A DNA stretch of 64,000 nt from an uncultured Acidimicrobiaceae bacterium (GTDB lineage: Bacteria; Actinomycetota; Acidimicrobiia; Spongiisociales; UBA5794). The stretch covers positions 19,872 to 83,871 of the forward strand of contig CAYWPC010000008.1 in NCBI GenBank assembly GCA_964460075.1, read 5' to 3'. A program made the translations under genes and the position numbers. Every line of letters starts with the position of its first letter. Position 1 is the first letter of the stretch. Below, one piece after another: positions 8,512-45,070 of the stretch. Under the pieces are notes generated by a model, which saw nothing but the letters and a program-made list of their open reading frames with translations, ran no database searches and had not been told where the DNA came from.

Positions 8512-9915
8512 GTGGACGACCTTTCCTCAGACGAGTGGGCAGCCTTCTCACCAAATCACGAGCGTTCGGGTTCAACGCGTTTGGGCTTACCTGAGTACAT
8601 TGCGGCGGTGATCGGCGTCCTGATCGTGATCGGTCTCGTCGTGCTGTGGCCGTCGGGGACCGCCAAGGAGACAGCATCTTCGAGTTTCGCCGTCTTGGGC
8701 GTGCCAAGTGAGTTCCACGAGGCAATCGTCACAGAGGTCATCTCTGCTCCATGTCCCAGCACGCCAGACACCGAGTGCAACTCTGTCTCGTTCGAACTCA
8801 CCAAAGGTCCAGAGACCGGACAGTCCTACACACAGGAGTTCACCGCCGACGATATCGTCCCGGATTTCTCCGTCGGCGGCCGAGTCGTGCTGTCACGAAT
8901 TGCCCCTGGCGGCGTAATCGTCGGGCTGAAGGACGCGCCGTGCGCATTCGACCAGGAGGCAACCTGCACCGAGGCCGAATTGCGGCTCTTCACAGGACCG
9001 AACACGGGATCGATTGGCTCGGTGTTGCTGTTCCCTGGCCAGGAAACCGGGCTGTTTCCAACCAGAGAAGTGATGGTCACGTTCGACTTCGACGGCGAGA
9101 TCCTCGCCATTGCACCTGCGACCCTCGAGGCCATGTATCGCTACTCGGACTACCAGCGCCGATGGTTCCTCGCAGCCATCGCCGCCTTGTTCGCATTGGC
9201 CGTGATCGCCCTAGGGAGGTGGAAGGGCTTAGCTGCACTCTCTGGACTCGGCTTGTCGGTCGTGATCATCGTGTTCTGGCTGATTCCATCGCTCATCGAG
9301 GGAAATCCGGCCGTTGCCGTCGCGATGGTTGGAGCATCCGCAGTTGCTTACCTTGCGCTCTATGTGTCCCACGGCGTGAATCGAATGTCGACGATTGCAC
9401 TCCTAGCGACACTCTCTGCCCTGTTTCTCACCACCGGGCTTTCGTGGCTCACGACGGTTCTCGCACAGTTCACCGGATTGGCGACCGAAGAGGCCACGCT
9501 GCTGCTCACAATTCGGGGATTCGATATCCGAGGACTGCTCATTGCAGGGATAGTGATAGGGGCAGCAGGCGCTCTCGACGATGTGACCGTGACACAAGCC
9601 TCAGCCATTGCGGAGATCAGATCTGCGAATCCAAGTATCGGAAACAAGCAACTCTTCGCGCGCGGCATGGCTATCGGGCGTGCCCACGTCGGGTCGATCG
9701 TCAACACGCTCGTCCTCGCCTACCTCGGTGCGGCGCTCCCCCTCACGATCCTGTTCGTACTCGCTCAACAGTCGTTCGGGGCAGTAGCCAACAGCGAGGT
9801 CGTCGCCGTCGAGATCGTTCGTTCCCTCGTCGGAACGATCGGGATCGTGGCTGCGGTCCCACTCGCCACATGGATGGCGACCGTGTGGCCCTCCACGTAC
9901 CGTCACCAACACTGA
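8512..9915 (+). CDS. YibE/F family membrane protein
   Basis: DYQR, GALDDVTVTQAS, HVGSIVNTLVLAYLGAALP and EIVRSLVG motifs. Confidence 0.88.
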   Translation: MDDLSSDEWAAFSPNHERSGSTRLGLPEYIAAVIGVLIVIGLVVLWPSGTAKETASSSFAVLGVPSEFHEAIVTEVISAPCPSTPDTECNSVSFELTKGPETGQSYTQEFTADDIVPDFSVGGRVVLSRIAPGGVIVGLKDAPCAFDQEATCTEAELRLFTGPNTGSIGSVLLFPGQETGLFPTREVMVTFDFDGEILAIAPATLEAMYRYSDYQRRWFLAAIAALFALAVIALGRWKGLAALSGLGLSVVIIVFWLIPSLIEGNPAVAVAMVGASAVAYLALYVSHGVNRMSTIALLATLSALFLTTGLSWLTTVLAQFTGLATEEATLLLTIRGFDIRGLLIAGIVIGAAGALDDVTVTQASAIAEIRSANPSIGNKQLFARGMAIGRAHVGSIVNTLVLAYLGAALPLTILFVLAQQSFGAVANSEVVAVEIVRSLVGTIGIVAAVPLATWMATVWPSTYRHQH

Positions 9916-16532: not shown

Positions 16533-17408
16533 ATGGCACGAACTACGATCGATGCCGGCGGAAAGGTCAGCGTTCTCGACTACGGCGGCTCAGGTCCATT
16601 GATCGTGTGCGTTCACGGCCTTGAGGGCTCGGCGTACAACTGGGACTTGGTCGCTCCCGAACTTGCCAAGACGCACCGAATCGTGGCTCCAGATCTTTCG
16701 GGATTCGGATACACCGAGCCTCTCGACGGCGGTTCGAGCGTCGGACGCAACACGAGACTGATCGCCGACGTCATCGACTCCTACGGCGGTAGAGCCATGC
16801 TTATCGGTAACTCAATGGGCGGCCTCATCTCCATCCTGGCAGCGGACAAGTACCCAGATAAAGTGTCGGCTCTCGTGCTGATCGATCCCGCGGCTCCCAT
16901 CTTTTCGTGGCTCGGGGTGCGGCCTGGCACCGCGGCGCGGCTCTCCGTTCCACTGATCCCAATCGTAGGGAAATGGCTCATCGACGGATACCGGTCTTCT
17001 GTCACCCCGCAGCAAGGTGTGCGTGAAGCACTCGAGTTCGTCGCTGCCGACGCCGATCGTCTCGATTGCTCCGTGTGGCAGAGTGCACTCGAGATCGCCG
17101 AGCTTCGACGCAGCCAGCCGTGGTCAACAGGCGCGTTGATCGAGGCAACCAACTCGATTGCTCCATATGTCGTGCGGAGGAGCCGGTTTGCGGAGTTGAT
17201 CCACCGCATCTCACAGCCGACGCTCCTCGTCCACGGCACGGATGACCCGTTGATCCAAGTTCGCTCCGCGAGCTGGATATCGAGGCAGAGACCCGATTGG
17301 ACCGTCGCGTTCTTCAAAGGCCTTGGGCACATACCCATGCTGGAAGACCCTGACCGGTTCCTCGCCGTGTTCAACTCGTGGGAGACATCCGTACTCGTAC
17401 AGCCTTGA
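16533..17408 (+). CDS. Alpha/beta hydrolase
   Basis: VHGL, PDLSGFG, GNSMGG nucleophile elbow, HGTDD, GHIP. Confidence 0.9.
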   Translation: MARTTIDAGGKVSVLDYGGSGPLIVCVHGLEGSAYNWDLVAPELAKTHRIVAPDLSGFGYTEPLDGGSSVGRNTRLIADVIDSYGGRAMLIGNSMGGLISILAADKYPDKVSALVLIDPAAPIFSWLGVRPGTAARLSVPLIPIVGKWLIDGYRSSVTPQQGVREALEFVAADADRLDCSVWQSALEIAELRRSQPWSTGALIEATNSIAPYVVRRSRFAELIHRISQPTLLVHGTDDPLIQVRSASWISRQRPDWTVAFFKGLGHIPMLEDPDRFLAVFNSWETSVLVQP

Positions 17409-17445
17409 ACCGCCACTCGTCGAGGCACCTGCCCGAGCCCAGAAA

Positions 17446-18903: not shown

Positions 18904-19112
18904 ACAACCCTTCCTCATGCTCCGAGTCGCACGCCTGTGCGGCATCCAAACTGTCGCCCCACCATCAGCCGCTGTGCAATATCGACGAGTCAGCTGACAC
19001 GTGTCCTCGTGATCGTAGCCGCAGGTCATCCCTCGCCGTTGGTCGACGGACTGCATCCGCGCTTCCCACATACATCCCGAACGTTCGCTCCACGGCGCTT
19101 AGAATCTGTCTC

Positions 19113-26949: not shown

Positions 26950-27553
26950 CTACGCGCCGAGAATCGAGCCGAATCCAGGCCCGTCGGGCCTATCGAGCTG
27001 TGCAAACGTGCAGTCCAAAGGATCCTTGTCCGGGCGCCATCGCTCGAATCTCGTCGCGTGTCGGAACCGATTGCCGGTCAACTGGTCGTACGAGATCTCG
27101 ATAACGACACCTGCCTTGACCGGGAACCACGAACGATCCTGCCCCTGACCACCACCCCCAGGCGTCTGGCGTAGGAAACCGCAACATGTTGCGGTTTCCT
27201 ACGCCAGAGTCCAGATCGGTCAGGCCTGGTGAACCGTGACTGCATCGGCGACCGCTTTGGCAACCGTGAGGTAGACCCGGTAGCCACCAACTACGCACTC
27301 GACAGATCGTCGATGCTTGATCTTGAGCATCTCACGCTTGCCTTCCACATACATGCCATCGCACCCAGCCGCCTCGAACTCGACGACCAGCACCTCTCCA
27401 TCAATGACGGTGCCGGAAGGAACCGAAGCCGCCACCGGCAATCACCCGAAATCCGTCCCACCTCGGCTCGAATGCCCAGCCTTCTTCCGGCCAGGTCGTT
27501 CGAACCTTCGCCTCCATCGGAGAGATTGGAAGCTCGAACGGTATGTCGTGCAT
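26950..27553 (-). pseudogene. ligC: Degraded ATP-dependent DNA ligase LigC
   Basis: Fragments in different frames: MHDIPFELPISPMEAK...FEPRWDGFR (catalytic K replaced by R), IDGEV, FEAAGCDG, GKREMLKIKHRRSVECVVGGYR, EISYDQLTGNRFRHATRFERWRPDKDPLDCTFAQL; frameshift, deletions and an inserted palindrome. Confidence 0.85.
27155..27219 (-). repeat. REP-like palindromic element, copy C (44-bp perfect palindrome at 27165-27208)
   Basis: TCTGGCGTAGGAAACCGCAACATGTTGCGGTTTCCTACGCCAGA with the CCGATCTGGAC flank shared with the copies at 38594 and 40682. Confidence 0.9.
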
Positions 27554-31969: not shown

Positions 31970-34120
31970 ATGCCATTCACGAACTTCCACTTCGAAATAG
32001 ACGACCATGGCGTAGCGACCGTGCTGATCGACCGGCACGACGAATCGATGAACACCATTGGCGAGGAACTGCTACACGAGCTCTCAGACGTGATCGACCG
32101 TCTCGAGGAGTCAGATGTCAAGGCGATCGTGATCGGATCTGCAAAGAAGGATTTCCTTGCAGGAGCAGACATCCGCATGTTCAGCAACGTGTCGTCTGCA
32201 GATGAGGTCGTCGATGCGCTCAAGGCGCTCCACAACGTCTTCGATCGAATCGAAGATCTCCACACGGTCGCAGGAAAGCCCGTTGTTGCTGCCATCGACG
32301 GCGCCTGCCTTGGAGGTGGCCTCGAACTCGCTCTGACCGCCTCCACGCGGATCTGCACGAACAGTTCCGCTACACAGCTCGGCCAGCCAGAGGTGCAACT
32401 CGGGCTCATCCCCGCCGGGGGCGGCACACAGCGCCTGCCTGAGCTCATTGGTCTCGCTGCGGGCCTTGAGATGATCGTCGCAGGCAAGCCAGTGCGACCT
32501 CGCAAAGCACGAAAGCTAGCTCTTGTCGACGAGGTCGTCCCCGTCGAGGTACTTCTCGATGTGGCGAGGACGCGAGCTCGTGATGCAATCGACCAAGAGC
32601 CGCCCGAACGCGTCATCGCGCTCAACGTCTCGCCTGGCAACTTGCAGAAGCTCGTCCTTGAGAAGAATCCTGCTGGCCGCAAACTGCTGTTCAAGAAGGC
32701 CACAGACATGATGATGAGCCGAACCGGTGGCCACTACCCAGCTCCCCAACGCGCCATCGAGGCAATCCGCATCGGAGCCGAACAAGGGCGCGCAGCCGGG
32801 GTTGCAGCCGAAATACGGTTCTTTGCTGAGTTGGTTCTCACACCCGAGTCTGAGGCGCTCCGCTCAATCTTCTTCGCAACACAAGAGCTGAAGGCCGACA
32901 CCGGCGTGGACGGTGACGTCAAAGCACGAGACGTCAAGCACGTCGCCGTTCTCGGAGGAGGCCTCATGGGCGGAGGAATCGCCGCGGTGTCCGCCGTGAA
33001 TGCAGGTGCCATCGTACGCATCAAGGAAGTCGACAATGCCGGGGTGGCACGTGGGCTCGGCTACGTGTCCAAGGTCGTGGCCAAGCGAGCCAGGCGGCGT
33101 CGGATGTCACCATTCGAGGTCGAGAAGATCATGAACAGGGTGAGTGGGTCTTCTAGCTGGGCCGGCTTCTCGAACACCGATATGGTGATCGAGGCTGTGT
33201 TCGAGGATCTCGACGTGAAGCGAACGATCCTTCAGGAGTCCGAAGCTGTAACGGGTCCCGACACCATCTTCGCGTCGAACACATCGTCACTCCCCATCAC
33301 CGAGATCGCTGCGGTGGCTCAGCGCAAGGAGAACGTCGTCGGCATGCACTACTTCTCACCGGTCGAGAAGATGCCGCTCCTCGAGGTCGTGACAACGGAT
33401 GCCACCAGCGATGAAGCGACAGCCACTGCGGTTGCCTTCGGCAAAGCTCAAGGCAAAACAGTCATCGTCGTCAATGACGGAACGGCGTTCTACACGACCC
33501 GAGTACTTGGACCGTATTCGAACGAAGCGGCATACCTACTCGAGGAGGGAGCCTCCATCGAGGATATCGACGGCGCTATGAAGGAATGGGGATTCCCCGT
33601 TGGGCCGTTGCTTCTCGCTGACGAGGTCGGCATCGATGTTGGCGCCCACATCGCCCTCATCCTCACCGACGCGTTCGGCGACCGGATGCGGGGACCGGCG
33701 ATGATGGAGGGCTTGATCGCCGACAACCGAAAGGGTCGCAAGAACGGCAGGGGCTTCTATCTGTATGACAATGGTGAACGCAAAGGCGTCGACGAATCGG
33801 TGTATAGCGCCCTCGGACTCGGTCCACGGAGCCACGTCGACCAGCGTGACATCGCGCAACGAATGTCGCTTGCGTTCATCAACGAAGCCGCCCGCTGCCT
33901 CCAAGACGGTGTCCTGCGATCTGCCAGGGACGGCGACATCGGTGCAGTCTTCGGCCTTGGTTACCCGCCGTTCCGCGGTGGGCCGTTCTGGACTGTTGAC
34001 CACATCGGAGCAGACGTCGTCGTCGAGCAACTGATCGTCCTCGCAGCCAAGCACGGTGACCGCTTCGAACCTGCGCAAATCCTTCGCGACCACGCAGCGT
34101 CAGGTGAGAACTTCAGGTAG
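31970..34120 (+). CDS. fadJ: Fatty-acid oxidation complex alpha subunit (hydratase plus 3-hydroxyacyl-CoA dehydrogenase)
   Basis: AGADI, CLGGGLE, PEVQLGL, GGGLMGGG, EAVFEDL, SNTSSLP, GMHYFSPVEKMPLLE, GYPPFRGGP. Confidence 0.92.
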   Translation: MPFTNFHFEIDDHGVATVLIDRHDESMNTIGEELLHELSDVIDRLEESDVKAIVIGSAKKDFLAGADIRMFSNVSSADEVVDALKALHNVFDRIEDLHTVAGKPVVAAIDGACLGGGLELALTASTRICTNSSATQLGQPEVQLGLIPAGGGTQRLPELIGLAAGLEMIVAGKPVRPRKARKLALVDEVVPVEVLLDVARTRARDAIDQEPPERVIALNVSPGNLQKLVLEKNPAGRKLLFKKATDMMMSRTGGHYPAPQRAIEAIRIGAEQGRAAGVAAEIRFFAELVLTPESEALRSIFFATQELKADTGVDGDVKARDVKHVAVLGGGLMGGGIAAVSAVNAGAIVRIKEVDNAGVARGLGYVSKVVAKRARRRRMSPFEVEKIMNRVSGSSSWAGFSNTDMVIEAVFEDLDVKRTILQESEAVTGPDTIFASNTSSLPITEIAAVAQRKENVVGMHYFSPVEKMPLLEVVTTDATSDEATATAVAFGKAQGKTVIVVNDGTAFYTTRVLGPYSNEAAYLLEEGASIEDIDGAMKEWGFPVGPLLLADEVGIDVGAHIALILTDAFGDRMRGPAMMEGLIADNRKGRKNGRGFYLYDNGERKGVDESVYSALGLGPRSHVDQRDIAQRMSLAFINEAARCLQDGVLRSARDGDIGAVFGLGYPPFRGGPFWTVDHIGADVVVEQLIVLAAKHGDRFEPAQILRDHAASGENFR

Positions 34121-34334
34121 GCAACCACACGGCTTCACCTGGGCTGCTGACCTTCGGCATGCCGTCTAGCGCGTTGCATTGCGCACCATTCGTGGAGAAA
34201 GTGCGCAATGGCATACGTCGAAAACAGCACCAGGCCACCAAAGACAACGAGCGACATCATGGCCTCAGCGTATCAACGTGGCTGACATCGCGACCCTGCG
34301 TCGCGACCATCTGTCATCGGTCTACTGTGGTGGA

Positions 34335-35504
34335 ATGCCGCACGAGTTTCGTCTTCCTGACATTGGCGAGGGCCTCACCGAGGCCGAGATCGTCCAGTGG
34401 TTTGTTTCTGAAGGTGACACCATCGAAGTGGATGCACCGGTCATCGAAATCGAGACTGCAAAGACATCGGTCGAGATCACGGCACCACACGCAGGAACCG
34501 TCCTCGCACTGGGCGGAGCACCGGGAGACACGATCAATGTCGGCGAGATCCTCTTCGTGGTCGGAGAGAAGGGCGAGACTGTGAAAGCACCCGTCGCCCT
34601 TTCAAGGGCGACGGCAGAGCGAGGAACGAGCGAGGCAGGGGGATCGTCGGTGGAACCCCCCTCGCCCGACGACTCGCTCGTCCCCCCTGAAAAGCCGACG
34701 GCAGGCGTCAAGGCCATGCCGGTTGTGAGGAAGCTCGCAGGGGAAAAAGGTGTCGACCTCACAACGATCGTAGGTACTGGTCCCGGCGGTGCCATCACGC
34801 GGGCGGACGTCGAGAGGAGGGCTCAGTCCGGTGCGGCCCAACAGGTCACACCGCTCAGCCGGAAGCGCAAGGCCATCGCCCGCCACATGGCCGAGTCGTG
34901 GGCGACGATCCCGCACGTCACGATCCAGGCAGACGTGAGGGCAGAGGAGCTCCTTGCTGCAAGAAAGCTCCGCGCCTTCAAGGACTGGCCGATCGAGCCC
35001 CTCGTTGCCATGGCGGTACTCCCGCTTCTCAAGCGGTATCGCGAATTCAACGCATCGATGCACGGCGACGCTGTTGCATACAGGGACCGCTACAACCTCG
35101 GCTTCGCGATTGATACCGAGGCGGGGCTCATGGTCGTCGTCGTCAAAGATGCGGACCAGCTGTCATTCGACGAGATCGCTACCGATTTCGAACGCCTGAA
35201 AGTCGCAGCCCTCGCCGGGACGCTCACGCCAGGTGAGGTCACAGGCGGCACGTTCACGATCTCAAACATCGGCGCACTCGGTGGAGGCCACGGCACGCCG
35301 ATCATCCCTGTGGGAACAACGGCGATTCTGTCGATCGGAAGGGCGAAGGAGGTACCGGTCGCAGACGAGGGGGTGCTCGCATTGGGATTCGTCGCCCCTA
35401 TCGACCTGTCATTCGACCATCGCCTCATCGATGGCAGCCTCGGCCAGCGCTTCCTCAACGACCTCGTCACTAATCTCACTGACGTCGCGGTCATGCGTGT
35501 GTGA
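34335..35504 (+). CDS. Dihydrolipoamide acyltransferase (E2) of a 2-oxo-acid dehydrogenase
   Basis: LPDIGEGL, lipoyl motif ETAKT, subunit-binding domain PVVRKLA...GTGPGG, catalytic DHRLIDG. Confidence 0.92.
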   Translation: MPHEFRLPDIGEGLTEAEIVQWFVSEGDTIEVDAPVIEIETAKTSVEITAPHAGTVLALGGAPGDTINVGEILFVVGEKGETVKAPVALSRATAERGTSEAGGSSVEPPSPDDSLVPPEKPTAGVKAMPVVRKLAGEKGVDLTTIVGTGPGGAITRADVERRAQSGAAQQVTPLSRKRKAIARHMAESWATIPHVTIQADVRAEELLAARKLRAFKDWPIEPLVAMAVLPLLKRYREFNASMHGDAVAYRDRYNLGFAIDTEAGLMVVVVKDADQLSFDEIATDFERLKVAALAGTLTPGEVTGGTFTISNIGALGGGHGTPIIPVGTTAILSIGRAKEVPVADEGVLALGFVAPIDLSFDHRLIDGSLGQRFLNDLVTNLTDVAVMRV

Positions 35505-35512
35505 CCGGTCGC

Positions 35513-38362
35513 TCAATCCTCGTAATCCTCGACCGGTGGGCAGGCACAAAACACGTTGCGATCGCCGTATGCGTTGTCGATGCGCCCAACCGGCACCCAG
35601 TATTTCCACTGACGAAGGCTTGCGACCGGGTACCCAGCCTGCTCCCTCGTGTAGGGACGAGACCATTGCTCGACCATGAGATCTTCTGCTGTGTGCGGGG
35701 AGTTCGCCAGCGCAGATTCCTCCGCAGACACCTCACCAGCCGCGACAGCGTCGATCTCAGCCTTGATCGCAATCATCGCGTCAACGAATCGATCGATTTC
35801 GTATTTCGACTCTGACTCGGTCGGCTCGACCATCAACGTGCCCGCAACCGGGAACGACATCGTCGGGGCGTGAAAGCCGAAGTCGATAAGACGCTTGGCG
35901 ATGTCCTCATTGGTGATCCCTGTATCGTGCTCGATACCACGGATGTCAATGATGCATTCATGGGCGACGAGGCCACCGGGTCCTGTGTAGAGGACCCGGT
36001 AGTGCGGCGCGAGGCGTTTAGCAATGTAGTTGGCATTCAGGATCGCGGTCTCTGTCGACCTTCTGAGCCCGAGCGGCCCGAGCATTGCAATGTACATCCA
36101 CGATATTGCAAGCACGCCTGCCGATCCCCACGGAGCCGACGACACGGCGTGGCGCTCGCCGTCCACACCCGAGAGATTCGGCACGAGGCCGTGGCCTGGC
36201 AAGTACGGAGCAAGATGCGCCTTCACACCGATCGGGCCGACGCCAGGGCCACCCCCACCGTGTGGGATAGCAAACGTCTTGTGTAGGTTGAGATGCGAAA
36301 CGTCGGAGCCAAACGATCCCGGTTCGGCAATGCCAACCATTGCATTGAGGTTGGCGCCGTCGAGATACACCTGCCCACCGTGACGATGCACGATATCGCA
36401 GATCTCGACGATCGACTCCTCAAACACACCATGTGTTGACGGGTAAGTGACCATGATCGCCGCCAGACGGTCCGCGTTGGCCTTGGCCTTCTCTTCGAGA
36501 TCAGCCACATCGATATTGCCGCGATCGTCACATGAGACAACGACGACCTTCATCCCTGCCATCACAGCCGAAGCTGGGTTCGTGCCATGGGCTGAGGACG
36601 GAATCAGACACACATCGCGATGTGGCTCACCGTTCGCTTCGTGGTAGCCGCGGATCGCGAGCAGTCCAGAGAATTCTCCTTGGGCACCAGAGTTCGGCTG
36701 AACCGATACGGCGTCGTAGCCGGTGATCGAAGCCAGCCACGATTCCAGTTCGTCAATGATCTCGAGATAGCCGCTCGCCTGGTCGAGTGGCACGAAAGGG
36801 TGCATATCGGTGAACTCCGGCCATGTGATCGGTGCCATCTCTGCCGAGGCGTTGAGCTTCATCGTGCAAGACCCGAGTGGGATCATCGAGCGGTCCAGGG
36901 CAATGTCTTTGTCCTGGAGGCGACGCAGGTAGCGCAGCATCTCCGTCTCTGAGCGGTATCGGTGAAACGTCGGGTGCTCGAGGAAGGTGGAAGTTCGCGT
37001 CAGACCTTTCGGGATCCCGGACGCTGTGTCGACAGCGGGCGTGGCGTCGACACCGAATATGTGGCAGAGAGCGTCAATGTCTGCCTCTGTGACGGTCTCG
37101 TCAAGGGATACGCCGACGGTCGTGCTGTCGACGGGACGAAGGTTGATCGTGTGCTGTCGTGCCTTCGCAAGGGTCGCATCTGCATCCAGCACCTTCACCG
37201 TGAGCGTGTCGAACCACGAATCGTTGGTGATACTCACCCCGCCTGCGATGAGGCGGGCAGCGAGCTGGTTCGTCCACCCGTGGATTCGTTCCGCAATCTC
37301 AGTGATCCCTTCTGGCCCGTGGTACGCAACGTACAAACCTGCCATGACGGCGAGCAGCACCTGTGCCGTGCAGATATTTGAGGTCGCCTTGTCCCTCCGG
37401 ATGTGCTGTTCGCGAGTTTGGAGCGTCAAGCGCAGGCCAGTTCTCCCTGCAGAGTCGACCGATACCCCGACGAGACGCCCAGGCATCGATCGCTTGTGGG
37501 CATCGCGCGTCGCCATGAACGCTGCGTGCGGCCCGCCGAACATCAGCGGAACGCCGAAGCGTTGCGATGAACCGATTGCCACGTCGGCGCCAAGCTCACC
37601 CGCGGGTATGAGAAGGGTTGACGCGAGCAGGTCGGTTGCAACGGCGACGAGGGCGCCTGCCTCGTGTGCACTCTCGATGATTGGCGCGATGTCGGGTATG
37701 CGGCCGGATGAACCCGGATACTGGAGCAGGACCCCGAACACAGCGCTCGGGTCTAGGTCCGTCTCGGGGTCCCCTACGATGATTTCGAAGCCGAGCGGAA
37801 TCGCACGCGTCGTAACGACGTCGATGGTCTGTGGGTGACAGTCACGGTCGACGAAGAATGCTGTGTTCTTGTTGTTGCGACCGACCCGCTTGATGAGCGT
37901 CATCGCCTCCGCCGCAGCAGTGCCCTCGTCGAGCAGGGACGAGTTCGCGATCTCGAGGCCTGTCAAATCGGTCACTGCCGTTTGGAAGTTCAGGAGCGCC
38001 TCGAGGCGTCCCTGGGATATCTCGGGCTGGTACGGCGTGTAGGCGGTGTACCAGCCAGGGTTCTCAAGAACGTTGCGCTGAATGACGCCAGGCGTGGTCG
38101 TGCCGTAGTACCCCATGCCGATGAGCGATCGGTACACGACGTTGTTGTCTGCGGCGCGCCTGATGCGCGTAAGGGCGTCGACCTCGCTCAATGGGCCATC
38201 GACAGACGGCAGCCGGTGCGAACGAATCGTCTCTGGCACTGCAGCGTCGATGAGGGCGTCGAGTGTTGGATGCCCTACGACCTCGAGCATGGATGCAAGA
38301 TCGGCCATCCTCGGTCCGATGTGACGCGATGCGAAGGCTCCGAGTTGGGGGTTTGCTGACAT
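35513..38362 (-). CDS. gcvP: Glycine dehydrogenase (decarboxylating), single-chain P protein
   Basis: [31 protein letters not shown] motif HLNLHKTF; ATG at 38362 below the riboswitch. Confidence 0.95.
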
Positions 38363-38391
38363 CGGCTGCTCCTCAGGGTACGACGAAACTC

Positions 38392-38568
38392 GTGCCCCGT
38401 CTGTCGTACAACCTGAGAGATTCACCGCCCTACAGCGGCTTTCACCTTCGGTGAGGGGTCTGCCCTGCTTTCCAGAGGTGCCTCTTCCTCGCGGTCCTTG
38501 TGCCTGAGAGATTCCCGGGACGGTTGCTCCTTCGGCGCCGGCCTGCCGACTCTCCCGCGAGGCGTCAC
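38392..38568 (-). ncRNA. Tandem glycine riboswitch
   Basis: Two aptamers upstream of gcvP: GGGAGAG...GCCGAAGGAGCAA...AATCTCTCAGG and CTCTGGAAAG...CACCGAAGGTGAA...AATCTCTCAGGT. Confidence 0.93.
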
Positions 38569-38593
38569 CAGCCCCCAAAGCGTACCAGTTCCC

Positions 38594-38670
38594 CACCCCG
38601 ATCTGGACTCTTGCGTAGATAGCCGCAACATGTTGCGGCTATCTACGCAAGACACCGGGGGAGAGTGTGC
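38594..38670 (+). repeat. REP-like palindromic element, copy A (44-bp perfect palindrome at 38609-38652)
   Basis: CACCCCGATCTGGAC-TCTTGCGTAGATAGCCGCAACATGTTGCGGCTATCTACGCAAGA-CACCGGGGGAGAGTGTGC. Confidence 0.95.
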
Positions 38671-38696
38671 AACGCTAGGGACTTCTCCAACGTGGA

Positions 38697-39161
38697 TTGG
38701 GTGTGGGCGACAGGGACGAAATGATCTACAACACCCTCAGCGGAGAACTGGTCAGGTACGCAAGCGCACTCGTGGGCCCCGATGACGGCCCCGACCTGTT
38801 GTCTGCTGTGATCACGCGCGTGCTGAGCAAACGCTGCCTCTCGGATCTAGACGATCCCCGTATGTATCTCTTCAGGGCGATCGGCAACGAGGCGCGTTCC
38901 CACAAACGTCGCTACGCCAAACGGCAGGTCGTCAGGCTCGACATCCCGAGCACCGTCACCCCGGTGGAACTCGACACAGCACTTGATGCCGTGATGGACC
39001 TGCCCACGCAGCAACGCTCCGCCACCTACCTGGTGTACTGGCTCGGCTACACACCGACCGAGGCCGCCGAGGCAATCGGCTGCAGACCTGGCACCGTGCG
39101 CCGCTACCTCTACCTGGCGAGGACCAAGCTCAAGGAGGTACTCGATGCCCCTCAGCGATGA
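38697..39161 (+). CDS. ECF sigma factor
   Basis: Region 2 LVRYASAL...YLFRAIGN and region 4 LPTQQRSATYLVYWLGYTPTEAAEAIGCRPGTVRRYLYLARTKL; exact start uncertain. Confidence 0.85.
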   Translation: MGVGDRDEMIYNTLSGELVRYASALVGPDDGPDLLSAVITRVLSKRCLSDLDDPRMYLFRAIGNEARSHKRRYAKRQVVRLDIPSTVTPVELDTALDAVMDLPTQQRSATYLVYWLGYTPTEAAEAIGCRPGTVRRYLYLARTKLKEVLDAPQR

Positions 39162-40674
39162 TCAATCCAGAGACATCTTCCGGAACGTCTTCGAGCACAC
39201 CGACACGAAGGCGCAAGACGCTCCGCAATGGTCTTGTATCCCGAAGCCTGTCACGACGCGGCCCGCACGATGGCGAGGCCCCACGATCGCTGTTGCAGCA
39301 GCAGCTGCCGTTCTCATCGTGGTGGGTATCGCCGCGATCCCCTCGCCATGGTTCCGAGCTGCATCCTCCCCCGTGGGAGGGAGCGCCGAAGGATCTGCGG
39401 TGGCAGTCAGGGATGGCGTAGTCCTTGCCATTGGTCTCGCGGACGACATCGGTGCTAACCAGTTCGAGCGCGTCGTTGAGGTGCTCACGACCGATCCTCG
39501 CGTGCTCGACTGGCGATACGTTGACAAGACAGAGGCGTATGAGGAGGCGTTGATCCAGTGGGCCGGCAGCGAGAGCACGATGCGGGTACTCCGCGGGAAC
39601 TCGAGTCTTCTCCCTGCGACCCTCCGGCTGCTCACCGCTAACCAGGCGGATGCGAAGGCAATCCAGGTTCTCGCTATGGAGACGTTCCCACCGCCGACGT
39701 CCGGCGTTATGGGCTCCGCCGCTTGGCGTGGCACGCTTGCGAGCCGTCAGCCAAGCATCTCGCTATCTGGTCTACACACCTACACCAGCGAGGAGCATGG
39801 CTTCGAGATCGCGTACCCGGTCGACTGGTACCAGGCCGATGAGATCCTCGCTCCCGGCTTGACGTCGCCACCTCAACAGATCGAAGAAGTGTTGTCGCTT
39901 GGTACCTATCCGCTCCGCCCTGGTGCATCACGTTGCCCGAACATCCCTGAGAATGCCCTGCTGGATCTCGGACCCGAAGATGTCCTCATCTCGATCGTCC
40001 TCGGCAACGGGAGTGGCGACGCTCCATGGCCGAACGCATTCGGTCCCGACAGCTTCCTCCCGACAGATGTGCCGATCGACGCTCAGACCTGTATCGGCCA
40101 ACCAGATCTGGATGCCCGATGGGGGTCCTTCGATCTCGACGGTCGAGGCGTTGACATATTCGTAGCATTCGGGAAGTTCGCCACTCCGGAGAAGCGGATA
40201 CAGACATGGCAGGTCCTTGACTCGTTCACATGGACGTCCCTCAGGTGGGAGGCAATGTCCACCACTACCACGACGGCGCCACCGACGGCCTGCCCAGTCA
40301 CCATCCCTCCCCAACCGGGGCTCGCGCCACCAGTCGGGTACCCGGCAACACCTGCGTTCGGGGTCTGGTTCGGGACGGAGGAGCTTTGGACCGTGCTCGA
40401 AGTTGACGGCAACTACAGACCGCGCAAGACCGTGCTTTGGAGCATCAACTTCCCTGGCGGGGCAGAGGAGGAGCGTCCCAGAGTTGACGTCACATGGACG
40501 CGAATCGACGTTCTCGGCGAACCAATCTCGAATGAAGCTGCGGCGACGAACGCCTACACGCCGGAAGACGGCAACTTCATGATCGCAGGCATCGACCCAG
40601 ACGAGCAAGGCTGCTGGCAGGTCAGGGCCACCTACAAGGGTGCCACGCTCACCTATGTATATCTCGTACCGTAG
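39145..40674 (+). CDS. Membrane-anchored putative anti-sigma/sensor protein with an FtsX-extracellular-domain-like segment
   Basis: Short cytoplasmic N-terminus, TM helix, YVDKTEAYEE...LPATLRL segment, Thr/Pro linker; overlaps the ECF stop. Confidence 0.7.
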   Translation: MPLSDDQSRDIFRNVFEHTDTKAQDAPQWSCIPKPVTTRPARWRGPTIAVAAAAAVLIVVGIAAIPSPWFRAASSPVGGSAEGSAVAVRDGVVLAIGLADDIGANQFERVVEVLTTDPRVLDWRYVDKTEAYEEALIQWAGSESTMRVLRGNSSLLPATLRLLTANQADAKAIQVLAMETFPPPTSGVMGSAAWRGTLASRQPSISLSGLHTYTSEEHGFEIAYPVDWYQADEILAPGLTSPPQQIEEVLSLGTYPLRPGASRCPNIPENALLDLGPEDVLISIVLGNGSGDAPWPNAFGPDSFLPTDVPIDAQTCIGQPDLDARWGSFDLDGRGVDIFVAFGKFATPEKRIQTWQVLDSFTWTSLRWEAMSTTTTTAPPTACPVTIPPQPGLAPPVGYPATPAFGVWFGTEELWTVLEVDGNYRPRKTVLWSINFPGGAEEERPRVDVTWTRIDVLGEPISNEAAATNAYTPEDGNFMIAGIDPDEQGCWQVRATYKGATLTYVYLVP

Positions 40675-40681
40675 ATACCAA

Positions 40682-40757
40682 CACCCCGATCTGGACTCTT
40701 GCGTAGATAGCCGCAACATGTTGCGGCTATCTACGCAAGACACCGGGGAGAGTGTGC
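40682..40757 (+). repeat. REP-like palindromic element, copy B (44-bp perfect palindrome at 40697-40740)
   Basis: Identical to copy A except for one fewer G in the G-run. Confidence 0.95.
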
Positions 40758-40761
40758 GGTC

Positions 40762-41814
40762 CTAGGTGGCTGATCCGCTGAGATCACCGGGTTGGCCATA
40801 TCTCCGCCTGAACACCACGTAGGCGGCAGCACCAGCCGGGATCGGGAGCCAGAACTGGAACACCCTGTATGCAAGGGTCGCAAGAGCCGCGTCGGGGCCA
40901 GGGATGCCCGCCGCTATCAGCATCGCGGTGAGCCCGACCTCGACGAAGCCCAGACCGCCTGGCGTGATTGGGATCATGCCGAGAACTGCGGAGCCAGCAA
41001 ACGCCACAAGCACAAGGCTAGCCCTCGGGTTCGCACCCACTGCGTAGAGCGCTACGACGAGGACCATGTAGTCGAGCACCCAGTTCAGAACCGCTGCAAC
41101 GAGTGCCTTCGGCCACCGCTTTCCTAGCGCTTTCACCACCTCGTTGCGGTGGTTGAGAAACCCTTGGGCGGAGAGTTCCCAGTCCTTCTGAAGCCGAGAG
41201 CCAAGCCGCATCCCAAAGGCTTCGACTATGCCTCCAACGAAGAGGAGAGGCCTGTCGTGTTTCACGATCGCGAACACTGCGGCGAACATGACGACGAACA
41301 ACGCACCACCTGCAACCGCGACCGGAAGCAGGTCTTGGGGAATCGGCGCCGACAGCGCCGCGAGGGTCAACGCGACCACCGGAAGCGAGAAGAGAACAAG
41401 ATTCGATATGAACGACACCGCAGCGAGCGCGGCCGCCGCCTGGCCCCTCGGAACGCCAGACGCAGAGAGCATCTGGAAATACGTAGCGCCAGCGGCGACA
41501 ACGCCACCGGGCACAACCTTCGCGAGAGCATTCGAGACGAGTTGGCTCGTGGCTGCCAGGAAACGAGAGATGTCTGGCACCGCGATGTGTGTCAACTCCC
41601 ATGCCGCAGCGAACGCCCCGGCCATGAGAACAGCCATCAGCGCGAACCAGTACCAGTAGATCCCTGAGAGATCGTCGGCAGACGACATGAAATCCACCAA
41701 CTTGGGCCACAGGATGTACAGAACCACGATCGACACAAGGAGGGAGAGTGACCGGATGAGAACGGTCTTCCACGCGAGCGTGCGGAATACTTGTTGCTGT
41801 GGTTTGTCGTTCAT
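40762..41814 (-). CDS. Lysylphosphatidylglycerol synthase TM-domain (flippase-like) protein
   Basis: VPGG, IPITPGGLGFVE, LAYRVFQFWLP; polytopic. Confidence 0.85.
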   Translation of the reverse strand: MNDKPQQQVFRTLAWKTVLIRSLSLLVSIVVLYILWPKLVDFMSSADDLSGIYWYWFALMAVLMAGAFAAAWELTHIAVPDISRFLAATSQLVSNALAKVVPGGVVAAGATYFQMLSASGVPRGQAAAALAAVSFISNLVLFSLPVVALTLAALSAPIPQDLLPVAVAGGALFVVMFAAVFAIVKHDRPLLFVGGIVEAFGMRLGSRLQKDWELSAQGFLNHRNEVVKALGKRWPKALVAAVLNWVLDYMVLVVALYAVGANPRASLVLVAFAGSAVLGMIPITPGGLGFVEVGLTAMLIAAGIPGPDAALATLAYRVFQFWLPIPAGAAAYVVFRRRYGQPGDLSGSAT

Positions 41815-42009
41815 GAAGCGATCGGTTGCGGTTTAGGCGCTCAATCTAACCAACTGAACGAGTGCACTCGGCAATCCTGTCGTCACACGGCCGAAGGTAT
41901 GCACGGCAATTCGCCGGTGAGCCTCGCACGACGAGCACCTTCACCCCATCGAGGCTTGCCAGCCGGCCTGGCACACCGCGCTACTCCACAAACGAGAGCC
42001 AACGCCGGC

Positions 42010-42705
42010 TCATGCACGGTCGATCGCAGGAGTTTCCAGTGGCGTGATCAGGTCAACAGTGTCGTTTTGCACCTTGTTGACCAACGTGGAGACTGCATGC
42101 CTCTTCATGAGTTCGGCTGGATACGCGCTCATCAGTTCCCTCAGTAGCGACACATCGGTGATCGACGGGTCAAGCCAGGTATCCCACCGATCAGGAGGAA
42201 GAATCACTGGCATCCGGTCGTGGATCTTCTCGAGCAATGGATTGGGCTGCCCCGTGAGGATCGTGCACGTCAACAACTGTTCCTCGGTCTCTGGGTCATG
42301 CCACGATGACCATATGCCCGCAACGGGGAGCGGCATTCCATCGACCGCGTATATGTAGTGGGGAAGCTTCCCTTTCGCCATTCGTTGCCATTCGTAGAAT
42401 CCATCGATCGGGATCAGGCATCGCCGCTGTGCGAATGAGCTCCTGAACATGGGTTTGTCTGCAACCGTCTCCGATCTCGCATTGATCGTGCGCGCACCAA
42501 TCTTGGCTTCCTTGGCCCACGACGGGATGAGACCCCAGCGCAACGTCGTCAACACACGGGCTCCTTCGTGCACAGCAACCGCATATATCCGCTTCGTGGG
42601 AGCAACGTTGTAGCTCTGCTTCAACGTCTCCGTTCGAACGAATTGCGCACCAAAATGCTCAGCGTAGAATTCGGGTTTCTCAACTTGAACGAAGCGTCCG
42701 CACAT
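42010..42705 (-). CDS. SRAP family abasic-site protein (YedK/HMCES)
   Basis: MCGRF N-terminus, YNVAPT, WGLIPSW, INARSET, GFYEW, IHDRMPVIL. Confidence 0.93.
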   Translation of the reverse strand: MCGRFVQVEKPEFYAEHFGAQFVRTETLKQSYNVAPTKRIYAVAVHEGARVLTTLRWGLIPSWAKEAKIGARTINARSETVADKPMFRSSFAQRRCLIPIDGFYEWQRMAKGKLPHYIYAVDGMPLPVAGIWSSWHDPETEEQLLTCTILTGQPNPLLEKIHDRMPVILPPDRWDTWLDPSITDVSLLRELMSAYPAELMKRHAVSTLVNKVQNDTVDLITPLETPAIDRA

Positions 42706-42795
42706 GACCACATTGTGCCAGACGTCTTCGACACCGATGACGGACCACCGTGCAGCGGTTCAAGGTTCCGACCATATCCACCGATGCTTCTGGGC

Positions 42796-43713
42796 ATGAC
42801 ATCTGCGATCTCCTTCTCCTCCGTCCATAAATCCTTTGGCGAGGTCCACGCACTCGACGACGTCGCATTCGACGCACCGGCAGGATCCGTCACTGTCCTA
42901 CTTGGACCGAATGGAGCAGGAAAGTCCACTGCCGTCCGCCTCACGACCGGTGCTCTCGTCGCTGATAGCGGAGCCGTCAGAGTCCTCGGACTCGACCCGC
43001 TCACAGATGGTGATGAGGTCCGGTCACGTGTCGGAGTCGTACCACCGAAGCCGTCGTTCTATGACAGCCTGTCCGGCTGGGAGAATCTTCAGTTCGCTGC
43101 AACCATCTTCATGAGCGACGAAGACCGTGCCCGCTCTGCAGCCAGGAAGTTCGCAATCGACGGCGAACTCGACCGAGCTGTCGGTGGATATTCGACGGGA
43201 ATGCGCACGCGGCTCGCACTGGCACGTGCGCTCGTGCACGATCCTGAGGTACTCATGCTGGACGAGCCAACAGCCGGGCTCGACCCTGAGTCGGCAAGGG
43301 CAGTTCTTGAGATGGTCACAGAGCTCGCCGAAACGGGACGAACGATCGTCATGTGCACGCATCTTCTACACGAGGCCGAAGGGATCGCAGACCACGTGGT
43401 CCTCATGGATCGTGGTCGAGTGCGGGCGCATGGCGGACCCATCGAACTCGCTAGGCACTACATGCCAGATCCGATCGTCATCGTCGACGCCGAGAACCGA
43501 GCCTCGCTCGAGTTCCTTGCAGAACTCGAAGGGATCATCACGGTACGTACCGACGGCGTCGCCTACGTGACGATCGACTCTCTGGATCGGGTACCCGAGA
43601 TTGTGATCGAGATGGTCAGGAGAGGCGCACGTCCTACGAGAATCGAGCCGATCGATCCAACCCTTGAGGACCTCTACTTCGAGATGCAGCGAACACACCG
43701 AGGTGAGCCGTGA
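42796..43713 (+). CDS. ABC transporter ATP-binding protein
   Basis: GPNGAGKS, YSTGM, LDEPTAGLDP. Confidence 0.92.
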   Translation: MTSAISFSSVHKSFGEVHALDDVAFDAPAGSVTVLLGPNGAGKSTAVRLTTGALVADSGAVRVLGLDPLTDGDEVRSRVGVVPPKPSFYDSLSGWENLQFAATIFMSDEDRARSAARKFAIDGELDRAVGGYSTGMRTRLALARALVHDPEVLMLDEPTAGLDPESARAVLEMVTELAETGRTIVMCTHLLHEAEGIADHVVLMDRGRVRAHGGPIELARHYMPDPIVIVDAENRASLEFLAELEGIITVRTDGVAYVTIDSLDRVPEIVIEMVRRGARPTRIEPIDPTLEDLYFEMQRTHRGEP

Positions 43714-44534
43714 GATGGACGATGGTCAAGGTGATCATGAGGACAGACCTGGCTCGCCTTGTAAGGACACGGGACTATTGGATACCTCTGGTGATCCTGG
43801 GTGGCATGTTCTTTGTGATTCTACCTGCCACGCTGCTCGGGGCACTTTCGTTCGTGCGTCAGGGTTCCCTCGTCGCCCAGATCAGCGAAATAGTCAGCAC
43901 CCTCCCGAGCACGATCCGCGCCAACATTCAGGGTGACAGCCCGACAACACAGGCCTCATACGCCTTTGCTGTGTACCTGCTGGCACCGATCGCGATCGTC
44001 GTTCCGCTGACGATCTCGTCGGCTATCGGGGCGAACTCGATCGTTGGCGAGCGAGAGCGCGGCACGGGTGAGTTCCTGGCGCACAGTCCGCTGACGGTCG
44101 AAGAGATCTACGTCGGGAAGCTCCTCGCAAGCCTTCTCCCTGGATATGGCGCAGGAATCGTCGGCTTCGGTTTCTACTCGATCGTCGTGAACCTCATCGT
44201 TGGGTCTCAGCTTGGACGATGGTTCTTCCCTACGGCCGGATGGTGGATTCTTGTGGTGTGGGTAGTGCCACCATTCATCGCGATCGCTCTGACACTGATC
44301 ATCCGGCTATCGGCACGTGTTCGCTCAGCTGCATCAGCACAACAGGCGTCGAGCCTCGTGACGCTGCCCGTGATCATCGTGTCCTACGCTGTTGCGACCG
44401 GTCTCATCTACAGCCCCGTTATGTCTGCGATCCTTGTGGGGCTGATCGCGTGGATCGCCGTTGGCCTCTTGTTGGCTTCCGGTTCCAAGTCGATCCGGCG
44501 CGAGCGTCTTGTCGGCCTCTCCTCCGATTCCTGA
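43710..44534 (+). CDS. ABC-2 type permease
   Basis: SIVGERERGTGEFL...GK; GTGA overlap. Confidence 0.88.
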   Translation: MRWTMVKVIMRTDLARLVRTRDYWIPLVILGGMFFVILPATLLGALSFVRQGSLVAQISEIVSTLPSTIRANIQGDSPTTQASYAFAVYLLAPIAIVVPLTISSAIGANSIVGERERGTGEFLAHSPLTVEEIYVGKLLASLLPGYGAGIVGFGFYSIVVNLIVGSQLGRWFFPTAGWWILVVWVVPPFIAIALTLIIRLSARVRSAASAQQASSLVTLPVIIVSYAVATGLIYSPVMSAILVGLIAWIAVGLLLASGSKSIRRERLVGLSSDS

Positions 44535-44554
44535 GGATGGTCACATCGGACGGC

Positions 44555-45070
44555 TCACTCCCCTGGCACCAGCCGTAACTCCAATAGCAGAGTTGAGACA
44601 AATCGTCCGTTCTTCCTACCTACTTCGTCGAGAACCCCGACATCCTTGAATGCGAGCCGGTGGTGCAGCGCAATGCTTGCCTCGTTCGGTAGTGCCACGA
44701 TTGCGTAGCAGCGATGCATTCCCTTCGCCGCAAGGTCGTCGATCAGTTCCTTATACAGGAGCGATCCCACTCCGCTTCCGATCGCGCACTCTGCGAGCAC
44801 AATCGTCGTCTCGACCGATGTCGCGTATGCAGCCTTACTGCGCCACGGCCCAGACCACGAAGCGCCGATCACGACACCGCCACGCTCGGCGACAAGAACG
44901 GCATAGCCGTGGGCGCTGCGCTCTTGGAACCACTGACTTCTCTCATCATCGGTCCACGGCTCCGTATCGAACGACACATGTGACGTCGCGATGTAGACGT
45001 TGTAGATTCGGTTGATCGCAGGCACATCATCAGCAGCTGCTGGCCGAATCTGAAAATCGAGGGCTGTCAC
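44555..45070 (-). CDS. GNAT N-acetyltransferase (phosphinothricin acetyltransferase-like)
   Basis: IYNVYI, GSGVGSLLY, PNEASIALH, VGRKNGR. Confidence 0.88.
   Translation of the reverse strand: MTALDFQIRPAAADDVPAINRIYNVYIATSHVSFDTEPWTDDERSQWFQERSAHGYAVLVAERGGVVIGASWSGPWRSKAAYATSVETTIVLAECAIGSGVGSLLYKELIDDLAAKGMHRCYAIVALPNEASIALHHRLAFKDVGVLDEVGRKNGRFVSTLLLELRLVPGE

Follow-up and report, generated by a model that had tools for sequence, protein, structure and literature searches.

REP-like palindromes at gene ends in an uncultured Acidimicrobiaceae bacterium, and a near-identical pair of them bracketing an ECF sigma operon

The repetitive extragenic palindromes (REPs) of enterobacteria are targets for insertion sequence (IS) insertion and join-points for recombination, and REPs, like the paired REP hairpins known as REPINs, have a conserved GTAG head. 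Other systems place foldable or repeated sites around genes: the attC sites of integron cassettes have the architecture R''/L''...L'/R', with ends of the GTTRRRY type and extrahelical bases, and in composite units flanked by miniature inverted-repeat transposable elements (MITEs), such as integron mobilisation units, the cargo lies between two miniature inverted-repeat copies. Hotspots of gene turnover flanked by core genes, on the other hand, need no special sites. Here we describe a family of short palindromes in an uncultured Acidimicrobiaceae bacterium (genome G000, a 2.3-Mb metagenome-assembled genome (MAG) of 65 contigs and 96.5% completeness), two near-identical copies of which, repeats A and B, bracket a gene for an extracytoplasmic function (ECF) sigma factor and its partner gene in a 64,000-nt stretch of contig C8 (positions 19,872 to 83,871 of CAYWPC010000008.1), hereafter the window. 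The reading that we prefer, with a probability of roughly 60%, is that these palindromes are REP-like terminator hairpins that also serve as substrates for recombination, and that A and B have recently been homogenised.

The likeness to the REPs and bacterial interspersed mosaic elements (BIMEs) of enterobacteria lies in the form, number and placement of the copies as well as in their stable hairpins. Those elements too are short extragenic palindromes with tens to hundreds of copies, found in 3' untranslated regions and often no more than about 15 nt from stop codons, as described in PMC12306157, where REPs at most 15 nt from a stop are also reported to stall ribosomes. In G000 we count 30 cores of one family (F1) and 14 of a sister family (F2), all of them short extragenic hairpin palindromes. 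The three F1 copies in the window are the following.

Repeat A, positions 38594 to 38670, no strand assigned: 77-nt palindromic element of family F1, between the gcvP leader and the ECF gene.
Repeat B, positions 40682 to 40757, no strand assigned: 76-nt F1 element, where the 3' ends of the convergent partner and LPG_synthase_TM genes meet.
Third F1 core, positions 27165 to 27208 (contig C8 47036-47079), no strand assigned: the commonest variant of the core.

Positions 38594-38660 and 40682-40748 are 100% identical over 67 nt and are followed by a G run (GGGGG in A, GGGG in B) and then by the same AGAGTGTGC in both; blastn aligns the two repeats at 98.7% over 77 positions with one gap, and they stand as direct repeats with a start-to-start spacing of 2088 nt. 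Each holds a perfect 44-nt palindromic core (38609-38652 in A and 40697-40740 in B), which at up to 3 mismatches has 2 matches in the window vs. 0 in 100 shuffles, and the 87-88-nt stretches at A and B fold as RNA with −48.5 to −51.9 kcal/mol (z −6.8 to −8.6). The end of A is 26 nt from the TTG of the ECF gene (38697), B starts 7 nt after the stop of the partner gene (40674) and ends 4 nt from the stop of the LPG_synthase_TM gene, and the stop nearest to the 44-nt core of B is 21 nt away. The third core, in reverse orientation, has an 11-nt flank (CCGATCTGGAC) in common with A and B. When the 30 F1 members are compared, A and B are the most similar of 435 pairs, so their near-identity is not due to chance. 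A search of positions 34000-45000 against Rfam at E ≤ 1 matched the glycine riboswitch alone and gave no family for the repeats. An earlier note on this stretch, made from the sequence alone, had described two near-identical repeats of 77 and 76 nt that differ by one G and tightly enclose two genes, had likened them to foldable REP palindromes, and had remarked on the lack of an integrase or transposase; sequence comparison, the spacings and the predicted folds agree with this description, and contig C8 has no Phage_integrase, rve or DDE_Tnp_1 match.

A and B belong to a family that is spread over the whole genome and placed at stop codons, whose positions are conserved at some loci of the genus, and which extends through the order with an inner sequence specific to each genome. 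The strict pattern TCTKGCGTAG-(24 nt)-CTACGCMAGA finds the 30 F1 cores on 14 contigs, mostly singly, while iterated nhmmer gives 35 matches at E ≤ 0.01 (one weak, and two that are the halves of one IS-split copy), for an F1 total of about 33. The layout is that of a 44-nt hairpin core with the ends TCTKGCG(TAG)...(CTA)CGCMAGA and a looser flank of about 15-18 nt on each side. The 14 F2 cores, of the form TCTTGCGTAACTGAGTCCC...GGGACTCAGTTACGCAAGA, are joined by 2 more at contig ends (about 16 in all), which brings F1 and F2 together to about 50 dispersed copies. The F2 core is 45 nt long with CTGT/ACAG flanks and occurs on contigs C5, C7, C11, C13, C17, C20, C27 and C29, with 5 of its 14 copies on the 49-kb contig C17 and none in the window.

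The placement of the copies is far from that of arbitrary intergenic DNA, as 24 of 30 F1 cores (median distance 8 nt) and 10 of 14 F2 cores (median 13.5 nt) lie at most 30 nt from a predicted stop, or 34 of the 44 together as GC-rich hairpins directly after a stop codon, compared with 16% of random intergenic positions. In 7 of the 44 copies the upstream open reading frame (ORF) enters the element and ends at an internal TAG (F1) or TAA (F2), at a distance to the stop of −10, and in many others the stop falls within a flank resembling CCTAGG or CTGAGG, 3-4 nt ahead of the core. The neighbouring genes are ordinary ones (rplT, class II aldolase, dnaB, dcd, sufB, hisIE, fumarase, aceK, thiolase and others). 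The F1 core contains a variable block of 5 nt with 14 different left-hand versions. This block is paired with its partner in 116 of 150 cells, compared with 90 ± 6, and never more than 109, in 2000 shuffles of the partners; the F1 hairpin is, judging by these covarying letters, kept through compensatory changes.

Conservation of position is seen best at rplT, where an element lies in the same place 3' of the gene in G000, G005, G006, G007 and G008; in the relatives the GTAG/CTAC of these copies is replaced by GTCC/GGAC, GCTG/CAGC, GTTG/CAAC or GTCG/CGAC, and the same position holds an unrelated GC-rich hairpin in G003 and a short spacer in G002. Within G000 the GTAG is invariant in the 30 F1 cores, but this set was itself chosen with the GCGTAG pattern. 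Of 61 genomes, 5 have the strict pattern, and 16, among them members of other families of the order, have at least 10 occurrences of the relaxed pattern TCTKGCG-N28-32-CGCMAGA, with 0-2 occurrences per genome of the reversed pattern as control; most of these relatives are fragmented MAGs, and one of the 16 element-rich genomes (G027) is unpublished. Copy number among relatives runs from 0 to about 38. Copies at orthologous positions in G004, G006, G007, G008 and G009 differ in inner sequence between genomes, each genome having its own, and the copies have therefore been homogenised or replaced within genomes.

The copies are also unevenly distributed along the G000 contigs. Adjacent pairs of elements less than 3 kb apart number six, with 0.93 expected (reached in 1 of 5000 simulations), so that bracketing as such recurs in this genome; contig C2 alone has 10 of the 30 F1 copies (0 of 20000 simulations), and three identical F1 cores are found on three different contigs. 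The repeats around the ECF pair, in which the earlier note had seen its best candidate for an undescribed shuffling system, are members of this dispersed family and not private to that pair; most copies of the family stand at gene ends and not at random.

The elements also differ from the described families. The core here is a near-perfect palindrome of 44 nt, compared with the imperfect 20-40 nt of a REP; only its outer 7-10 nt are conserved across the order; there is no RAYT (REP-associated tyrosine transposase); and the host belongs to the phylum Actinomycetota, class Acidimicrobiia. With the REPIN-RAYT system the elements share a hairpin of two inverted arms, a master sequence with variants within one genome and a mostly vertical persistence. 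The single-copy RAYT (a Y1 transposase) that defines that system is, however, missing from the element-bearing genomes that were searched: PF01797 has 0 matches in G000, G004, G014, G045 and G052, in a search whose control matched 6 of 14 known genomes. In addition, the GTAG here is not conserved in orthologous copies. The portion of the literature open to text search holds no description of such elements in Acidimicrobiia that we could find, and its matches to the 10-nt motifs seem to be unrelated primers.

The history of the locus can be followed through its genes, which are these.

gcvP, positions 35513 to 38362, minus strand: glycine dehydrogenase P protein (GDC-P 8.5e-185, GcvP2_C 2e-56).
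Glycine riboswitch aptamer, positions 38482 to 38567, minus strand: Rfam RF00504, 73.9 bits vs. a gathering threshold of 32, E 2.5e-14, in the gcvP leader.
ECF-type sigma factor gene, positions 38697 to 39161, plus strand: 154 aa from TTG; the true start may be the ATG at 38721.
Partner protein gene, positions 39145 to 40674, plus strand: 509 aa; its start overlaps the ECF stop by 17 nt.
LPG_synthase_TM (flippase-like membrane protein) gene, positions 40762 to 41814, minus strand: PF03706 1.3e-24; TIGR00374, 53 bits vs. a cut-off of 43.2.

The ECF gene adjoins gcvP or the LPG_synthase_TM gene in G004, G006 and G009 too, and its product is 89%, 80.5% and 78% identical there at the amino acid level, compared with 77-81% DNA identity for gcvP in the same three genomes. 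Since the ECF gene has diverged about as far as its flanks, and the GC content at third codon positions (GC3) of the pair is native (0.78 and 0.70 for the two genes vs. a genome mean of 0.687), the ECF module appears to have been inherited vertically in the lineage of G000, G004, G006 and G009. The order in G004 is gcvP, element, ORF200, element, ECF gene with a partner of 886 aa, element, Rrf2-ORF159, element, methyltransferase-MMPL-TetR, LPG_synthase_TM gene. The left flank of A is orthologous to that of the G004 element at 9727-9794 and its right flank to that of the element at 9008-9071, and ORF200, which has a 61%-identical counterpart in G009, has no homologue in G000; G000 has therefore lost ORF200 from between two elements and retained a single hybrid one. 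In G006, elements are found by gcvP, upstream of the ECF gene (a degenerate copy beside a run of N) and after ORF258, which follows the partner. The strict pattern and nhmmer had suggested that the cassette stands in G006 without repeats, which the relaxed pattern and the sequence itself ruled out. The N run beside the pre-ECF element (L025 about 17100-17200, G006 contig C8) has duplicated flanks and is probably a scaffolding artefact. Beside the element at the B site of G004 lie an extra 28 nt and a possible relic.

The positions of A and B are thus already occupied by elements in G004 and G006, and the two are identical in G000 only, which argues for recent homogenisation or local copying. 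We would attribute the identity of A and B to gene conversion or to copying biased towards nearby sites, and not to the fresh insertion of a cassette. An inversion between symmetric palindromes, which could also make identical asymmetric copies, was considered as their origin and rejected, as the ECF gene keeps the same orientation with respect to gcvP in G004, G006 and G009 and the third copy shares the flank.

Identical repeats in a MAG of 65 contigs also invite the explanation that the assembler threaded the ECF segment wrongly between repeat copies, or gave both copies one consensus, and Logan contigs of the probable source run do break at both repeat centres. We regard such an artefact as very improbable, however: the adjacency of gcvP and the ECF gene and the linkage of partner and LPG_synthase_TM gene are met independently in G004, G006, G009, L066 and L067, the one-G difference between the copies is retained, and the contig depths are alike (29.9, 24.5 and 25.1). 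The same Logan contigs show no deletion or circle joint at the locus, though contigs cannot show rare forms; their sole joint is a 39-nt skip in the gcvP leader. Two small RNA runs gave nothing that could be placed on the stretch.

The elements may instead be MITE-like, i.e., non-autonomous transposons moved in trans, with A and B as recent insertions of one master at nearby gene ends and the bracketing of the operon as a by-product. This would account for a master sequence with a cloud of variants and three identical cores on three contigs, for the strong regional clustering, for the span of copy numbers among relatives, for the ORFs that end at the element's own TAG or TAA (7 of 44 copies), and for the extra 28 nt and possible relic by the B-site element of G004. 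What makes it unlikely in our judgement is the lack of a mover and of its traces. By inspection, no target-site duplication is visible in the flanks, which extend the palindrome and show inverted complementarity and no direct repeats at the core and at the extended ends alike. In G000, the genome to which this search was confined, element ends standing alone are no more frequent than by chance or else lie at contig ends, and there is no longer element with such ends. Transposase genes in G000 are few (one rve, three DDE_Tnp_1), TnpB has no match there, and IS110 has one of 20.6 bits, below the cut-off. The occupation of both positions in G004 and G006 counts against recent insertion as well. 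The sole rve gene, which encodes 383 aa with HTH_38 (NCBIfam IS30 family, 286.9 bits), was examined as a possible parent of IS30-derived MITEs and rejected, as the ends of its IS are unrelated to those of the elements. This IS (contig C2 141538-142744; L036 12538-13744) sits near the centre of an F1 palindrome; with its own ends, CTTGGTTTCAAGTG..., and a 3-bp GCG duplication, it has inserted into the element and is not its parent. Its ends are also found at contig ends in G005.

Returning to homogenised, recombining hairpins as the preferred reading, the state of the locus in other genomes bears on what recombination between A and B could do. A metagenome scan with the LPG_synthase_TM protein gave 33 loci, 13 of them with both this gene and gcvP, and shows that the ECF/partner operon occupies a hypervariable interval between the flippase-like gene, its conserved right-hand neighbour, and gcvP. 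The earlier note had predicted that excision would leave one repeat between these genes and that relatives might hold an empty site or different cargo, and both are seen. L093 has a single element between the LPG_synthase_TM stop and the gcvP leader, and L078 has the same arrangement on a contig that ends before the gcvP coding region; L081 has a full element plus a half one, and in L084 and L088 (the latter identical to L089) the 285-290 nt between the genes show element relics only, as judged by eye. Elsewhere the interval holds TetR, a zinc alcohol dehydrogenase (ADH), ADH with TetR, TetR with MMPL, DUF5362 with a sulfatase, or the ECF/partner pair with further genes. By pattern, 7 of the 13 loci have an element immediately ahead of the gcvP leader, about 240-270 nt upstream of where the gcvP match begins. 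Six genomes of the genus, namely G000, G004 and G006-G009, have an element at this place by the gcvP leader, as do at least 7 of the 13 metagenome loci. In a tree of the LPG_synthase_TM protein (with a midpoint root, for drawing only), L072, which has the partner, groups with the empty loci L081, L078 and L093 with support 89/87, and the other ECF-bearing loci fall in a different clade from L072.

Element-bounded differences are found at other places as well. G007 has a single element where G000 has element, ABC-F gene, element, and its flanks align to the outer flanks of both G000 copies; the ABC-F gene is present in G003, G005, G006 and G008. By comparison of these sequences, loss that leaves one element is verified at two other places, ABC-F in G007 and ORF200 in G000. 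Next to an F1 copy by a PNPOx-like gene the relatives carry 0.9-5.2 kb of extra DNA. On contig C31, two F1 copies identical over 57 nt and inverted with respect to each other (17361-17417 and 19036-19092; L047) bracket a hipA/HTH (hipBA-like) toxin-antitoxin pair inside an rml/glycosyltransferase cluster, and this element pair ranks 3 of 435. A search of 60 relatives for the hipA gene gave no match at E ≤ 1e-30, the GC3 of the hipBA-like pair is lower than its neighbours', and DNA matches around it in relatives are weak.

These observations also invite a stronger claim, namely that of a cassette system in which the palindromes are attC-like sites, modules are inserted and excised by an enzyme or through processing of the extruded hairpin, and the ECF/partner pair is one cassette. 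The likeness to integron attC cassettes consists of foldable sites with imperfect palindromes right after ORFs, modules bounded by sites, and empty and occupied states. Single-element empty sites with varied cargo in the interval, the grouping of L072 with empty loci, the element-bounded insertions or deletions at three other places, a hipBA pair that is lineage-specific, of lower GC3 and set between 57-nt identical copies, element ends conserved across the order, and several copies with arms of different variants, as central crossovers would give, can all be cited in its favour. We nevertheless hold it to be doubtful. None of the 7 Phage_integrase (PF00589) matches of the genome is on C8, and there is no Y1 transposase, TnpB or IS110 in support; no arrays are seen, most copies are by housekeeping genes, and the copy by rplT is stable across five genomes. 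The ECF module has diverged to about the same degree as its flanks, the full plus half element of L081 is not a clean site-specific product, and hotspots flanked by core genes turn over with no special sites. Compared with integrons proper, which the earlier note had called to mind, IntI, attI, Pc and arrays are all missing, the element ends (TCTKGCG/CGCMAGA) are not of the GTTRRRY type, the core is a perfect palindrome with no extrahelical bases, and the elements lie on at least 14 contigs by core genes; an integron-like apparatus is not supported. The MITE-flanked composite units resemble the locus in that the cargo lies between two copies of a small palindromic element, but here no target duplications and no cognate transposase were found, and the ECF cargo is ancestral at the locus. 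The varied cargo between the LPG_synthase_TM gene and gcvP across many lineages is what core-gene-flanked hotspots would show, with the difference that module boundaries and deletion scars here coincide with a specific repeated palindrome.

In its widest form, this idea would make the TCTKGCG...CGCMAGA palindromes sites of an order-wide exchange of gene modules independent of RAYT, with ECF/anti-sigma, hipBA and Rrf2 pairs and TetR/MMPL genes inserted, inverted and excised at the hairpins by a conserved enzyme that recognises the invariant ends or when the extruded palindrome is processed, and with whole elements duplicated (A and B, the C31 pair). We offer this as a speculation to which we attach a small probability.

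A system aimed at ECF modules in particular, which the earlier note had put forward as one that shuffles ECF/anti-sigma pairs, is not supported. Sigma70_r4_2 has 18 matches in the genome (17 over the cut-off), of which one, the gene in the window, is bracketed by elements, and two other sigma genes have one element within 2 kb. About 50 copies are dispersed by ordinary genes; the ECF gene has diverged about as far as its flanks at the locus in G004, G006 and G009; and no recombinase or integron features were found for the elements.

How the elements might work in the preferred reading, as terminator hairpins that recombine, can then be outlined. Their main role would be that of terminator hairpins or structures at 3' ends, and of insulators, with B serving the convergent partner and LPG_synthase_TM genes, and a terminator role is plausible from their sequence and position. 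Being near-identical palindromes, they may also recombine with one another, which would delete, and perhaps invert or insert, the modules that lie in between; as the core reads the same on both strands, any two copies could pair either way and both deletion and inversion would be possible. If A recombined with B, the operon could be lost and a single element left behind, as in L093 and L078, and excision of the operon in this way is plausible.

Several points weigh against this picture. There are 0 terminator-like sites with a T run in 38300-41000, and the elements have no T tract. Repeat A is between divergent genes, with no gene end there. The statistics on gene context use gene calls from our own ORF and GC-frame heuristic, with no trained gene finder. 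Gene conversion of A and B is something that we infer from the sequences of the copies, and the identical master cores on three contigs mean that some long-range copying is needed. The ECF/partner module is patchy on the LPG_synthase_TM tree, which implies several, or many, losses or else transfer, and the lineage-specific hipBA pair between identical inverted copies looks more like a gain associated with the elements than a loss.

This REP-like family, from an actinobacterial class that has been little studied, seems not to have been described before. It has ends conserved through the order, an inner sequence specific to each genome, a tight placement at stop codons and no RAYT, and copies of it are found at deletion scars and at the edges of a hypervariable interval. 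It is a concrete place to ask how small palindromes spread with no known transposase and to what extent they drive the loss of genes from streamlined genomes. In annotation work, the elements can be used to mark operon ends and likely contig breaks in MAGs of Acidimicrobiia.

As to the bracketed genes themselves, the product of the ECF gene has Pfam matches to Sigma70_r4_2 (4.1e-10) and Sigma70_ECF (1.6e-07), with region 2 given no separate Pfam report, and reaches 43.9 bits for NCBIfam TIGR02937 vs. a cut-off of 42.9; it is a group-4 sigma factor with regions 2 and 4. Its partner, with a topology judged by eye, crosses the membrane once, by a hydrophobic helix at about aa 45-70 that separates a short cytoplasmic N-terminus from a large outer part, and is presumed to be an anti-sigma factor or sensor, with no anti-sigma domain detected by Pfam or NCBIfam. 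Its FtsX_ECD match is weak here (6.9e-4, below the cut-off) and strong in the G006 orthologue (2.4e-20). The G004 partner (L023 5968-8628) is 886 aa long compared with 509 aa here, with an extra 356 residues past the region aligned to G000, and terminates in the same C-terminal motif, which suggests repeated C-terminal domains; the C-terminal domain of the partner (about aa 381-509) is found alone in other genera.

In the leader of gcvP, whose start at 38362 is placed by reading the sequence (an ATG with GAGGAG upstream), the open frame extends through the riboswitch to 38596. About 15 nt ahead of the riboswitch there is a conserved TACGCT (window 38568-38608, minus strand); should this be the −10 of the gcvP promoter, its −35 would lie within the flank of repeat A. 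The motif GGGAAC-N18-CGTCGT, which we take to resemble an ECF-type promoter, precedes ORF200 in G004 (L023 about 9680-9730) and ORF221 in G009 (L027 about 1960-2000), on the inner side of the gcvP-side element and close to it. Upstream of the ECF gene, G000, G004 and G006 have GTGCAACGCT in common, which overlaps the end of repeat A (window 38666-38675).

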